From the NCBI GenBank assembly GCA_049641805.1, contig JBARNX010000043.1, positions 1 through 55,401 on the forward strand: a stretch of 55,401 nucleotides of DNA, read 5' to 3'. Numbering within the stretch: position 1 is the first letter of the stretch; each line of letters opens with the position of its first letter. The notes beneath the pieces were generated by a model, which did not search any database, was not told where the DNA came from, and was given only the letters and a program-made list of their open reading frames with translations. Source of the DNA: Minisyncoccales bacterium. GTDB lineage: Bacteria > Patescibacteriota > Minisyncoccia > Minisyncoccales > UBA5738. Positions 965-37,317 of this stretch are shown here, piece after piece. The position numbers were made by a program, and so were the translations under genes.

Positions 965-1417
965 CTAAGATTTTATTTCTTCTTTCTTTTCGATTTTGGC
1001 GGTCTTTTTGGTTTTCTTTGCCGCGATCTGCTTGCTTTTTCCCTTGACCGTTTCAACGGCCAACGGCCGATCCAGCAATTCCACCACCGCCATGGGCGCT
1101 CCGTCCTTAAGTCTTTGGCCCAAAAGCGCGACGCGAGTATATCCGCCGGCACGATCCTTAAAGCGGGGCGCGATCACCGCCGTCAATTTGCGGCTGGCGA
1201 CTTCGGGCAGAATTGATGCCAAAGCTTTTTTTGAAGCCAAATCGCCGACCTTCGCCTTGGTAATCAATCTCTCAACGAAAGACGCGGCCTGGCGCGCGCG
1301 AACCTTGGTGGTTTGAATCTTTTCCCGCAATATCAGATTGACCGCCAAAGAACGCATAAACGCTCTTCTTTGATCGGTTTTCCGGCTGAATTTTTTACCT
1401 TTAATTCTCTTGTACAT
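965..1417 (-). CDS. rplQ: 50S ribosomal protein L17 with a K-rich C-terminal tail
   Basis: MYKRIKGKKFSRKTDQRRAFMRSLAVNLI lines up with the usual L17 N-terminus. The track start at 1438 was trimmed to the ATG at 1417. Confidence 0.9.
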   Translation of the reverse strand: MYKRIKGKKFSRKTDQRRAFMRSLAVNLILREKIQTTKVRARQAASFVERLITKAKVGDLASKKALASILPEVASRKLTAVIAPRFKDRAGGYTRVALLGQRLKDGAPMAVVELLDRPLAVETVKGKSKQIAAKKTKKTAKIEKKEEIKS

Positions 1418-1467
1418 AATAATATTATCAGAACTCAAATGTCAAAATTAAAATTTAATCGGTTGGG

Positions 1468-2157
1468 TTATGCGTTGAAAACATTCCGAAACATCGTAAA
1501 ATGGCTGACCAATATCTCCGAAGCCTGCGCGAACGCGGTTTCCGGAGTGATGGTGCCGTCGGTTTCGATTTCAAAAATTACTTTGTCAAAATCCGTCCGA
1601 TCGCCTACGCGCATATTTTGAACCTTGAAACCGACTTTTTTAACCGGCGTAAACATCGCATCCATCGCAATCACCCCGATTTCCAGCTTGGCTTTGGTTT
1701 GGCGCATTTCTTTTGACATATAGCCGGTTCCTTTTTCAACCTTGATTTCCATTTCCAATTTGGAACTTTTCGCGGTCAAACCGGCAATGTGGGTTTCGGG
1801 ATTGGCAAGTTCCAACTGGCTGGGAATTTCCAAATCCGCGCCAGTGATCTCTTTCTCGCCCTTGGCCTTCAACACGCAAGTCTGCGGCTCATCGCCGGTC
1901 AGTTTGAATCTTAATTGGCGAACATTGATCATCAATGTGATTACATCTTCCATCACTCCCGCGATCGTCGAAAATTCATGCGGCACATTTTTAATATTTA
2001 TCTGGGTCACGGCGGCGCCTTCAAGCGACGACAGCATCACCCGCCTCAACGCATTGCCGACGGTAACGCCATAGCCGGGATACAGCGCCTCGATTTCGAT
2101 TGACGCGCTGTTGCCTTTTTTATCAATTACTTTGGGTTCAAGCGGTAATGGTATCAT
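1468..2157 (-). CDS. rpoA: DNA-directed RNA polymerase alpha subunit, N-terminal (assembly) domain only, 229 aa
   Basis: Contains GYGVTVGNALRRVMLSSLEGAAV and FEIETDG..TPE, which are alpha-NTD motifs. The ORF stops 29 nt before rplQ with no C-terminal domain. Confidence 0.9.
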   Translation of the reverse strand: MIPLPLEPKVIDKKGNSASIEIEALYPGYGVTVGNALRRVMLSSLEGAAVTQINIKNVPHEFSTIAGVMEDVITLMINVRQLRFKLTGDEPQTCVLKAKGEKEITGADLEIPSQLELANPETHIAGLTAKSSKLEMEIKVEKGTGYMSKEMRQTKAKLEIGVIAMDAMFTPVKKVGFKVQNMRVGDRTDFDKVIFEIETDGTITPETAFAQASEILVSHFTMFRNVFNA

Positions 2158-2901: not shown

Positions 2902-2904
2902 TGA

Positions 2905-3025
2905 AAATAATTTAAAATTTAAATATCAAAGTTTAAAATTTTTGTGTTGAAATTTTTTGAAAAAAATTTCAATGATATATAATTTTCCTTAATTTTGATT
3001 TTTGATCTTTTGGCTTTTCACTTTT
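2905..3025. repeat. Family-A palindromic AT-rich intergenic repeat, copy A1 (approximate ends)
   Basis: AAATATCAAAG..TTGTGTTGAAATTTTTT..AAAAATTTCAATGATATAT..TTCCTTAATTTTGATTTTTGATC. Fills the rpsD-rpsK spacer. Confidence 0.8.
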
Positions 3026-3476: not shown

Positions 3477-3480
3477 TGTA

Positions 3481-3593
3481 ATTAATTTAAAATGTAAATA
3501 TCAAAATGAAAAATTATTGTGTTGAAATTTTTTTAAAAATTTTAACAATATATTATTCCTTGATTTTGATTTTTGATTTTTCAACTTTTAATT
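3481..3593. repeat. Family-A repeat, copy A2
   Basis: AAATGTAAATATCAAAATG..GTTGAAATTTTTTTAAAAATTTTAACAATATATTATTCCTTGATTTTGATTTTTGATTTTTCAACTTTTAA. Confidence 0.85.
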
Positions 3594-3597
3594 TGTC

Positions 3598-3987
3598 TTA
3601 TGTCGGCGTCGCTGCCGGTTTGCGGCCCGAACCCACGGTCTTACGAATATTACCGCGCACGGTTCTGGTGTTGGTCCGCGTTCTTTGGCCCCTGACCGGC
3701 AAATTGCGGGAATGGCGCATACCCCTCCAAGCCACGATATCCTTCAAGCGTTTGATGTTCATCATCACATCGCGCTTCAAATCGCCTTCCACGCGGTAAT
3801 TCTTCTTGACTATTTCCTCGATCAATTTCATCTGTTCCGGCGTCAAATCTTTTGCTTTGACAGTTGGGCCGATCTTGGCTTCGGCAAGCACCACTTTAGC
3901 CGATGATCTCCCAATCCCGTAAATGTATCCGAGCGCGATTCCGATTTGTTTGTTGTCCGGTATGTTTACACCGATTATGCGTGGCAT
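3598..3987 (-). CDS. rpsM: 30S ribosomal protein S13
   Basis: MPRIIGVNIPDNKQIGIALGYIYGIG...WRGMRH...LPVRGQRTRTN.RT. Confidence 0.95.
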   Translation of the reverse strand: MPRIIGVNIPDNKQIGIALGYIYGIGRSSAKVVLAEAKIGPTVKAKDLTPEQMKLIEEIVKKNYRVEGDLKRDVMMNIKRLKDIVAWRGMRHSRNLPVRGQRTRTNTRTVRGNIRKTVGSGRKPAATPT

Positions 3988-29948: not shown

Positions 29949-29954
29949 TTTGCT

Positions 29955-30066
29955 TAATTTAAAATTGAAATATCAAAATGTAAAATTGTTGTGTTAAAAT
30001 TTTCTTTAAAAATTTTAACGATATATCTTCCTTAATTTTGATCTTTGATTTTTAAACTTTTAATTT
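29955..30066. repeat. Family-A repeat, copy A4
   Basis: GAAATATCAAAATGTAAAATTGTTGTGTTAAAATTTTCTTTAAAAATTTTAACGATATATCTTCCTTAATTTTGATCTTTGATTTTTAAAC. Confidence 0.88.
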
Positions 30067-30070
30067 TCTA

Positions 30071-30475
30071 TTACCAGATCTCGCAAAGCATTTCTCCGCC
30101 GATGTTCTGTTTCTTGGCTTCGTATTCAGTCATCAACCCCTTGGAAGTCGTGATTATCCCTATGCCATGGCCCTGCTTCACTCTTTTGATATCGCCCGCG
30201 GCCACATAAACCCTCAAACCCGGCTTGGAAATCTTTTTGTAACCCGAAATTGCCGGAATTTTATTCGTATATTTCAAAGAAATCTCCAGACAAGGATGCA
30301 TTTTGCCGGTCTTTTTTATTTTCCGGCTCTTTTTTTCCACGCCCGCGACAAGCCCTTTTCTTTCCAAGATTTTGGCAACGGCATATTTCATGCTCGAATA
30401 CGGCACCGCCACCAACGGCTTTTCCACCGCCTGCGCATTGCGGATCATTGTTAACATATTTGCGACTGTATCCAT
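30071..30475 (-). CDS. rpsH: 30S ribosomal protein S8
   Basis: DTVANMLT.IRNA......V..P.S......A.IL...G......GIGII.TS.G.MT...A....IGGE.LC..W. Confidence 0.94.
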   Translation of the reverse strand: MDTVANMLTMIRNAQAVEKPLVAVPYSSMKYAVAKILERKGLVAGVEKKSRKIKKTGKMHPCLEISLKYTNKIPAISGYKKISKPGLRVYVAAGDIKRVKQGHGIGIITTSKGLMTEYEAKKQNIGGEMLCEIW

Positions 30476-31455: not shown

Positions 31456-31463
31456 ATCAGAAC

Positions 31464-31572
31464 AAATTCAAAATTTAAATATCAAAATGTAAAATTATTG
31501 TGTTAAAATCGCTTGCAATTTCAACGATATATTATTCCTTAATTTTGATCTTTGATTTTTCAACTTTTAATT
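31464..31572. repeat. Family-A repeat, copy A7. Shares a private inner variant with A8.
   Basis: Inner module AAAATCGCTTGCAATTTCAAC at 31505-31525, identical to 32765-32785. Confidence 0.88.
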
Positions 31573-31574
31573 TT

Positions 31575-32720: not shown

Positions 32721-32724
32721 ATCT

Positions 32725-32834
32725 AATTCAAAATTTTAATATCAAAATGTAAAATTATTGTGTTAAAATCGCTTGCAATTTCAACGATATATATTTTTCC
32801 TTGATTTTGATCTTTGATTTTTCAACTTTTAATT
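32725..32834. repeat. Family-A repeat, copy A8. The rpmC stop lies in its last arm.
   Basis: Same AAAATCGCTTGCAATTTCAAC inner variant as A7 (32765-32785). Confidence 0.88.
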
Positions 32835-33020
32835 TTCTATGGTTTCTTTTTGCAAAGTTTTAATCCGCGCGACATCCAGCTTTATCTGCCGGACTTCTTT
32901 CAAATTCTTCACTTTGCCCGCCGACAAATCAAATCTCAACTCGGCCAGCTTGGCAAGTTTTTCATCCAGCATCACGGCTAATTCTTGTTTATTTTTTTGG
33001 CGCAATTCGGAAGTTTTCAT
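32829..33020 (-). CDS. rpmC: 50S ribosomal protein L29
   Basis: MKTSELRQKNKQEL...L......LRF......KN......K.D.ARI.T. The TTG track start at 33035 was trimmed to the ATG at 33020. Confidence 0.88.
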   Translation of the reverse strand: MKTSELRQKNKQELAVMLDEKLAKLAELRFDLSAGKVKNLKEVRQIKLDVARIKTLQKETIEN

Positions 33021-35929: not shown

Positions 35930-36064
35930 TTCCAATGTCAAATTTCAAATGTCAAACAAAATCCTAATGCCAAATGTCAAAATAAAATACGGTAATTTAA
36001 TTTTGGCATTTGACATTTGAACTTTGGCATTTGTTTGAAATTTGTCATTTGGATTTTGACATTT
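35930..36064. repeat. Family-D hairpin (CAAATGTCAAA/TTTGACATTTG words), copy D1
   Basis: CCAATGTCAAATTTCAAATGTCAAACAAAATCCTAATGCCAAATGTCAAAAT ... TTTTGGCATTTGACATTTGAACTTTGGCATTTGTTTGAAATTTGTCATTTGG. Confidence 0.7.
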
Positions 36065-36480
36065 TATTTAGGCAGAACTTCAATGCTCTGGCCTTCCTTG
36101 ATTTTCACGATCGCCTTGCGATAGCCCGGTTCCGTGACAATTCCGCGGCCGCGCCGGCGCCGCTTGCCGGGGACATTCACCACATTCACGCCTACGACTT
36201 CCACTCCGTAATAATTTCCAATCGCGCGGGCAACTTCTTTTTTGTTCGCGCCGCTTGCCACTTTGAAAACATACTGGTTGATTTTCACAAGTTTTGAAGC
36301 CTTTTCGGTCACATGCGCGTGTTCCAAAACCCGCATTGCCTGTCCGCTGACTTTGCGAACGGTTTTAACGCTCTCGCCCGTTTTGGCGACGACGGATTTC
36401 TTTTCTTTTTTTAACGCCGCGCTTTTTTTAACGCCGGAATATTTGCCGCCCTCTTTTTTGAATATGTCGGTGATTGCCAT
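36064..36480 (-). CDS. rplW: 50S ribosomal protein L23 with a ~45-aa K-rich N-terminal extension
   Basis: TEKA........N.Y.FKV...ANK.EV..AI...Y.V.V..VN..N..GK.RR...........KA.V....G. Confidence 0.9.
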   Translation of the reverse strand: MAITDIFKKEGGKYSGVKKSAALKKEKKSVVAKTGESVKTVRKVSGQAMRVLEHAHVTEKASKLVKINQYVFKVASGANKKEVARAIGNYYGVEVVGVNVVNVPGKRRRRGRGIVTEPGYRKAIVKIKEGQSIEVLPK

Positions 36481-37202: not shown

Positions 37203-37207
37203 ATTCT

Positions 37208-37317
37208 TAATTCAAAATGTAAAAATCAAAAATCAAAATCAAGGAATAATATATCGTTAAAATTTTTTTAAAAAATTTTAACTCCATAATTTTCAACTTT
37301 GATCTTTAAACTTTCAA
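37208..37317. repeat. Family-A repeat, copy A12 (inverted orientation)
   Basis: AATGTAAAAATCAAAAATCAAAATCAAGGAATAATATATCGTTAAAATTTTTTTAAAAAATTTTAACTCC..TTTTCAACTTTGATCTTTAAAC. Confidence 0.85.

Follow-up and report, generated by a model that had tools for sequence, protein, structure and literature searches.

An RNA polymerase alpha subunit without a C-terminal domain in a family of Patescibacteria

The window analysed here is a 55,401-nucleotide stretch of DNA, contig C47 of genome G000 (GenBank JBARNX010000043.1, assembly GCA_049641805.1), from a member of the order Minisyncoccales in the Paceibacteria ('Parcubacteria') of the Patescibacteria. The whole assembly comprised 991,710 bp in 74 contigs and was estimated to be 100% complete and 0.21% contaminated. 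The gene studied was rpoA, which encodes RNA polymerase's alpha subunit. Canonical RpoA has about 310-340 amino acids (aa) and consists of an N-terminal domain (NTD), a flexible linker and a C-terminal domain (CTD). The alpha-CTD reads UP elements, serves as the docking site of many activators, and is regarded in textbooks as a universal part of the enzyme. The open reading frame (ORF) in the window was considerably shorter:

1468..2157, minus strand: rpoA, an NTD-only alpha (N-terminal or assembly domain) of 229 aa, assigned by ORF, Pfam, NCBIfam and PDB alignment; ATG start, TAA stop at 1468-1470

Pfam analysis showed that PF01193 (Rpb3/Rpb11-type dimerisation domain) matched residues 26-220 with 83 bits and that PF01000 (RpoA insert domain), nested inside it, matched residues 53-170 with 94.2 bits. 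Both matches were above the cut-off, and the two domains together make up the alpha NTD. No match to PF03118, the alpha-CTD model, was found in the 229-aa protein at E<=1. The NCBIfam rpoA models were matched over their first 210-238 or so positions, out of 298-344. The TIGR02027 cut-off of 227.8 bits was passed with a score of 233.5 over model positions 3-210 of 298, while seven other rpoA equivalog models (PRK05182) stayed below their cut-offs, since the match covered just the first two thirds of each. Alignment to PDB chains placed residues 6-223 on residues 9-231 of E. coli alpha (best match 9n9p, E 5.8e-52); therefore, the protein stops about where the E. coli NTD ends, and it is a complete NTD and nothing more. 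Only nine residues, with a net charge of about 0, followed the last NTD helix, and both the linker and the helix-hairpin-helix CTD of canonical RpoA were missing. The window rpoA was the single PF01000 match in the whole genome, so the gene is single-copy. The original prediction, made from the window's letters, held that the 229-aa product ends about at the end of the assembly domain; Pfam, NCBIfam and the PDB alignment agreed with it, as did the search of the ORF with hidden Markov models (HMMs) of the NTD (PF01193 and PF01000, present) and of the CTD (PF03118, absent).

The gene order around rpoA was that of the usual infA-rpsM-rpsK-rpsD-rpoA-rplQ-rplM cluster, with the neighbours identified by Pfam:

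3598..3987, minus strand: rpsM (S13), PF00416, 103.2 bits
3024..3476, minus strand: rpsK (S11), PF00411, 127 bits
2269..2901, minus strand: rpsD (S4), directly upstream of rpoA, PF00163 and PF01479
1418..1467, minus strand: spacer of 50 nt between rpoA and rplQ, with stops in all three frames
965..1417, minus strand: rplQ (L17), 150 aa with a lysine-rich C-terminal tail, PF01196, 94.7 bits
597..962, minus strand: rplM (L13), downstream of rplQ, PF00572, 119.2 bits

Two starts were possible for rplQ, a TTG at 1438, given in the ORF list, and an ATG at 1417. The ATG opens the sequence MYKRIKGKKFS, which was kept in 12 of 12 orthologous loci; therefore, 965-1417 is the likely rplQ gene and the spacer is 50 nt long. 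The two starts account for the gap of 29-50 nt that had been described at first, 50 nt being the likelier value. The accompanying claim that no frame in the gap encodes anything also held, in view of the stops in all three frames; when the rpoA stop was read through in frame, a second stop followed after 10 codons. Across the 12 orthologous loci the spacer measured 9-70 nt. The spacer has no coding capacity for a CTD.

A sequencing or assembly error, or a recent nonsense or frameshift mutation turning the gene into a pseudogene, might have shortened a normal rpoA. The genome is a 74-contig assembly of metagenome type, and one window alone cannot exclude such an error. However, 12 distinct orthologues ended at the same position (nine of 229 aa, one of 231 and two of 228), they did so with varying stop codons (TAA, TGA or TAG), and rplQ lay close behind in all of them, at the distances given above. 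Amino-acid identity to the orthologues was 79-88% within the genus and about 70% to those of a second genus. Nei-Gojobori estimates of dN/dS (the ratio of nonsynonymous to synonymous substitution rates) for the window rpoA against eight orthologues of the same length were 0.025-0.114, with dS of 1.1-4.7, which indicates that rpoA is under purifying selection. Logan contigs from four runs of four studies were compared over positions 1200-2400 of the window. Record 4 of X6 (1373-1753) and records 19 and 20 of X9 spanned the rpoA stop without a gap, and a contig of X4 spanned the whole of 1200-2400 with one substitution, although X4 is perhaps not independent, as its study (P1) is shared with the possible source runs X1 and X2. 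Indels in the contigs were listed only for the spacer upstream of rpoA, at 2229-2265. The same CTD-less form was present in G005, a closed genome of the genus. The conserved end, the purifying selection and the contigs from other studies thus showed that the stop at 1468 is not a sequencing error, as had been proposed with reserve, and an artefact or a decaying gene was rejected with near certainty.

Another possibility is a split alpha, in which a separate gene supplies the CTD to the polymerase in trans. A search with PF03118 in six frames of the whole 991,710-bp genome gave 0 matches at E<=10, while 10 of 10 bacterial control genomes scored above the cut-off. As a guard against divergence, a profile (A1) was built from 21 CTDs of related Patescibacteria (Candidate Phyla Radiation, CPR). 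Profile A1 likewise found nothing in the six frames of the window's genome at E<=10, and gave 0 matches in the closed, single-contig genome G005 and in G013, a genome of the same family; in the positive controls it found the CTD of G019 (1.6e-31) and of G015 (4.4e-34). The claim that no alpha-CTD ORF lies elsewhere in the genome was therefore upheld with both models.

Stand-alone CTD-like ORFs do exist in other Patescibacteria, which speaks for a split alpha. G218 encoded a CTD-like protein of 135 aa (L116:1627-2034, plus strand; PF03118, 49.4 bits) and G015 one of 127 aa (L117:1558-1941, minus strand; PF03118, 55.5 bits). The rpoA of G218 itself lacked a CTD (262-aa frame), the CTD-like ORF lying at another locus, next to an ORF that we take by eye to be ruvA. 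These ORFs may be part of a split alpha, or else CTD-like DNA-binding proteins unrelated to it, and more short CTD-only frames occurred in the class and phylum samples described below (e.g. G308, G382, G618). Against a trans-acting CTD in the window's genome stand the null results with both models, the sensitivity of A1, which was sufficient to detect the stand-alone ORF of G015 (4.3e-13), and the lack of a CTD throughout the window's family, its closed genome included. A separate PF03118 ORF as in G218 and G015 was absent from G000, G005 and G013, and a split alpha is very improbable here.

In the family of the window (f1), a CTD was found in 0 of 15 genomes, namely G000, 12 others of its genus and two of a second genus. 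The rpoA gene was found in 14 of them, in stop-to-stop frames of 231-279 aa; the one miss was G009, which is 71% complete. Among the 26 other families of the order that were sampled, 10 had a CTD above the Pfam cut-off, and one more had only a stop-containing fragment of 19.6 bits. This sub-threshold fragment (G033:C23:3158-3235) carried an in-frame TGA and lay on a different contig from the rpoA of that genome, which has a basic tail in place of the CTD; the fragment may be a relic. In an even sample of the class, 222 of 301 genomes had a CTD and none was found in the other 79; at a completeness of at least 90%, 209 of 286 had one. In the phylum, it was found in 352 of 401 genomes, all at least 90% complete, and not found in 49. 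The same search in Pseudomonadota, used as a baseline, found the CTD in 148 of 151 genomes and missed it in 3. Genomes without a detected CTD thus made up 2% of the Pseudomonadota sample, 12% of that of Patescibacteria, 26% of that of the class and 100% of the window's family. This survey of related genomes showed that the CTD-less rpoA is a trait of the lineage: the loss is fixed in the window's family and recurrent elsewhere in the phylum.

The rpoA proteins of the order were extracted from the fetched loci and aligned, and three forms of the C-terminus were distinguished. Form A (NTD, linker and CTD; n=21) had 303-340 aa, with a linker of median length 33 aa and median net charge -1. Form B (NTD and a low-complexity tail; n=20) had 235-293 aa, with a tail of median length 48 aa and median net charge +10; the tail was net positive in 19 of the 20, the other one (L059) having -13, and several tails ended in the same lysine/arginine run. 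Form C (NTD only; n=12), found in the window's family, had 228-231 aa, with 9-11 residues past the last NTD helix and a net charge of about 0.

A search of 1.84 billion cluster representatives provided the 150 best relatives of the window alpha. Profile A1 found a CTD in 99 of these 150 and none in 51, the latter being an upper bound, as A1 is derived from CPR sequences and may miss divergent CTDs, and as several of the CTD-less representatives had at least 300 aa, with tails resembling out-of-frame translation. Tail charge was compared in the 35 CTD-less representatives with tails of 16-80 aa. A rule that CTD-less tails are always polybasic held within the order and was rejected for the representatives, of which 14 of 35 had a net positive tail (median -1). 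The last 12 residues had a median charge of +4 in the CTD-less set, with +4 or more in 22 of 35, versus a median of 0 and +4 or more in 7 of 99 among the CTD-bearing representatives. The AT-hook-like motif RGRP was present in 3 of the 51 CTD-less and 0 of the 99 CTD-bearing representatives; the three alphas ending in it (P0018, P0059 and P0071) had the motif flanked by lysines. Tails of at most 15 aa occurred in 4 of 48 CTD-less representatives counted as having a complete NTD (one of the 4 without its N-terminus); therefore, the tail-less form is rare even among CTD-less alphas. In three representatives, P0001 (569 aa), P0006 (526 aa) and P0117 (664 aa), the alpha NTD was matched in two separate stretches; these may be tandem duplications, fusions or gene-calling artefacts.

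Phylogenetic trees based on a concatenate of S11, S4, the alpha NTD and L17 (49 rows, 701 columns) were constructed in the 'quick' mode of IQ-TREE under LG+G4 and LG+C20+F+G4; the four markers are linked, and the alpha NTD is one of them. Form C was a single clade in both trees, with 100% support in the SH-like approximate likelihood-ratio test (SH-aLRT), which indicates a single origin of the tail-less form within the genomes sampled. The CTD label changed 10 times under LG+G4 and 11 times under LG+C20+F+G4, and well-supported branches forced at least 5 and at least 4 of these changes, respectively. The trees thus indicate several changes of CTD state inside a single order, with no direction assigned to them. 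A sister relationship of the window's family to a tailed lineage (f18), with 98% SH-aLRT support under LG+G4, was not reproduced under LG+C20+F+G4 and was discarded.

The genome contained three sigma70-family genes, as judged by Sigma70_r2 matches. The primary sigma factor had 401 aa (G000:C18, L124:1012-2217, minus strand) with regions 1.1, 1.2, 2, 3 and 4, and the two other sigma70-family proteins were small. The ORF upstream of the primary sigma gene was presumably primase-like, from inspection by eye. Before region 1.1 the primary sigma carried a polybasic, lysine-rich N-terminal extension of about 50 aa. Polybasic sigma N-termini occurred throughout the order, in 30 genomes examined, whatever the form of alpha. 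The net charge was +22 to +29 in five CTD-bearing genomes versus +10 to +19 in the 15 of the window's family, as calculated over the first 45 residues of called ORFs (fewer in 4 rows), some of whose starts are approximate. The extension as a compensation specific to CTD loss was rejected, as it was present alike in CTD-bearing, tailed and tail-less genomes. Lysine-rich termini recurred in information-processing proteins of this genome, in sigma and in L17, whose lysine-rich C-terminal tail runs about 35 aa past its Pfam domain (residues 21-114 of 150), while alpha had none.

The task of holding upstream DNA might have passed to a part that is not homologous to the CTD, such as the polybasic extension of sigma or a nucleoid or accessory protein. 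The lysine-rich start of the primary sigma is in line with this, and in relatives, alphas that lack a CTD usually have a basic patch at their end, which suggests selection for some affinity for DNA. However, the sigma extension is also found in CTD-bearing genomes of the order, where it is the more positive, and the window alpha has no tail of any kind. Such a replacement, which we consider unlikely, would be compatible with the gene being an NTD-only alpha and would differ only in the functional consequence.

The omega subunit (PF01192) gave 0 matches in the window's genome at E<=1 and was matched in 0 of 41 genomes of the order at E<=0.01, compared with 14 of 14 controls, although a divergent omega is possible. 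No literature combining the omega subunit, RNA polymerase and the Candidate Phyla Radiation was found.

The A/T-rich intergenic repeats to which attention had been drawn at first consisted of long palindromic elements and of 7-nt TTGACAT-type repeats, and a role of either as UP elements would be hypothetical. The spacer between rpoA and rplQ held a promoter-like site, TTGACA-18-TATTAT at 1445..1416 (minus strand; 11 of 12 matches), and one copy of the repeat TTGACATTTGA at 1435-1445. Runs of 7-nt periodic TTGACAT/TTGAAAT repeats occurred in spacers at 1435-1445, 2243-2260, 35931-36066 and others; perfect -35-like hexamers lie within them, and they are found on either side of rpoA. The sequence TTGACATTTGA, with at most one mismatch, occurred 14 times versus 1.97 expected, and 0 of 100 shuffles reached 14. 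The pattern TTGA[CA][AT]-N16-18-TANNNT had 60 matches in 637 upstream regions defined by crude ORF calls, a count that is uninformative on UP elements. A conserved, A/T-rich palindromic repeat of about 110 nt occupied many spacers between ribosomal-protein genes, with copies at:

2902-3023
3477-3597
about 29949-30098
31456-31574
32721-32838
37203-37317

Its outer arms, AAAATCAAAGATCAAAAT and ATTTTGATATTT, surround an inner 11-bp A/U hairpin. A structured RNA was considered and rejected, as the predicted fold of 2902-3023 (minus strand) had z = -0.48 and was indistinguishable from shuffles; the palindrome may be a repeat element at the DNA level.

Taken together, the alpha of the window is an intact NTD maintained by selection, and neither its own gene nor any other in the genome supplies a CTD; the rpoA gene is very probably a genuine, functional and lineage-fixed NTD-only form in this genome. 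From the alignment to solved polymerase NTDs and the purifying selection, two such alphas would dimerise and scaffold beta and beta'. Promoters would then be found through the sigma factors alone, that is, one primary sigma and two small sigma70-family proteins. Alpha would make no contact with A/T-rich UP elements and would offer no CTD surface to class I activators. The enzyme is thus probably unable to read UP elements or to be recruited by the usual activators, because E. coli enzyme with an NTD-only alpha, according to a passage of PMC8321222, assembles a core and carries out basal transcription without UP-dependent or class I activation. In line with this, a passage of PMC12531629 states that the CPR clade has no two-domain CRP/FNR regulators.

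Several points weigh against this interpretation or limit it. No RNA runs matching 1200-2400 of the window were listed. The assembly is in 74 contigs, and the evidence that it lacks a CTD depends on its estimated completeness and on a closed genome from the same genus. One OmpR/PhoB-type regulator is retained, so that activators acting through other contacts may still drive some transcription. The genomes of the window's family were the largest of the order (median 1.0 Mb versus 0.55 Mb for forms A and B, from rounded sizes); as the largest genomes go with the shortest alpha, simple genome streamlining is no explanation. A non-homologous protein or another part of the polymerase could replace the function of the CTD and would be invisible to HMM searches.

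A broader scenario of graded reduction can be offered tentatively, and we doubt that all of its steps hold jointly. The C-terminus of alpha would have been reduced repeatedly and stepwise in Patescibacteria, from a full CTD to a short tail and then to nothing, and the last step, without a tail, would be fixed only in the window's family. A linker-derived tail with a basic or AT-hook-like patch could hold A/T-rich upstream DNA non-specifically. Upstream or non-specific anchoring of DNA would have moved from alpha to the N-terminal extension of sigma; this shift would have acted as a pre-adaptation under which the CTD could be dispensed with, hence the many losses in this phylum and almost none elsewhere. 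If omega is also missing, the core would consist of two alpha NTDs, beta and beta', the most minimal bacterial core known outside insect endosymbionts.

If the window alpha is indeed a functional NTD-only subunit, CTD-independent initiation would be a normal trait across much of bacterial diversity, beyond the dying genomes of endosymbionts. CTD-less genomes make up about a quarter of the class sample, about an eighth of the phylum and a whole family with genomes of about 1 Mb. The scale of the loss would surprise specialists in transcription, its consequences being drawn from E. coli. One prediction is that models of promoters and mechanisms of activators worked out in E. coli will not carry over to these organisms, and the loss would allow the need for the CTD to be studied in a natural setting. 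The three natural forms, with a CTD, a basic tail or nothing, are ready-made material for reconstitution.

Comparison with known systems showed that the window alpha is an orthologue of canonical RpoA (TIGR02027). It has the same position in the S13-S11-S4-rpoA-L17 cluster, the same PF01193/PF01000 NTD and 40-64% identity to the NTDs of other bacteria, while canonical RpoA has a linker and a PF03118 CTD and the window alpha has neither. Archaeal Rpo3 (subunit D), eukaryotic Rpb3 and the Euglena plastid rpoA, whose lack of a CTD is mentioned in one sentence of PMC8321222, are alpha-like assembly subunits that likewise have no CTD. The match of the window alpha to the archaeal subunit D model (NF001988) was weak, with 28.6 bits versus 175-257 bits for the bacterial rpoA models, so the window alpha is of bacterial type.

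Loss of the alpha-CTD in Parcubacteria, the same broad lineage, was stated in one sentence of a 2021 paper (PMC8321222), citing Nelson & Stegen 2015; this sentence describes neither the distribution nor the forms and offers no evidence. The cited paper, in its main text, did not contain the terms polymerase, rpoA, alpha or truncat. No systematic account of CTD loss in Patescibacteria was found in the literature, although the supplements of these two papers may hold data. Within the literature searched, there appears to be no published account of how far the loss extends in Patescibacteria, of the three forms or of the tail-less extreme.

The engineered truncations of E. coli alpha (about residues 1-235; PDB 1bdf, a 235-aa NTD chain) have the same extent as the window alpha; however, those were made by design, whereas the truncation in the window is natural, fixed in a whole family and, judging from dN/dS, under purifying selection.

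The insect endosymbionts Hodgkinia and Tremblaya, with genomes on the order of 0.15 Mb, offer the natural counterpart. Their alphas have mostly kept the NTD and lost the CTD, and in these cases of extreme genome reduction sigma and beta are eroded too, according to a passage of PMC8321222. Like them, the window alpha is natural, has kept a bacterial-type NTD and has lost the CTD, which is absent from both the gene and the genome. In contrast to them, the window's genome has about 1 Mb, an intact NTD and a sigma factor with all its regions, and the genomes of its family are the largest in the order. The CTD-less alpha as a phenomenon has thus been noted before, and the family of the window is a well-supported further case.

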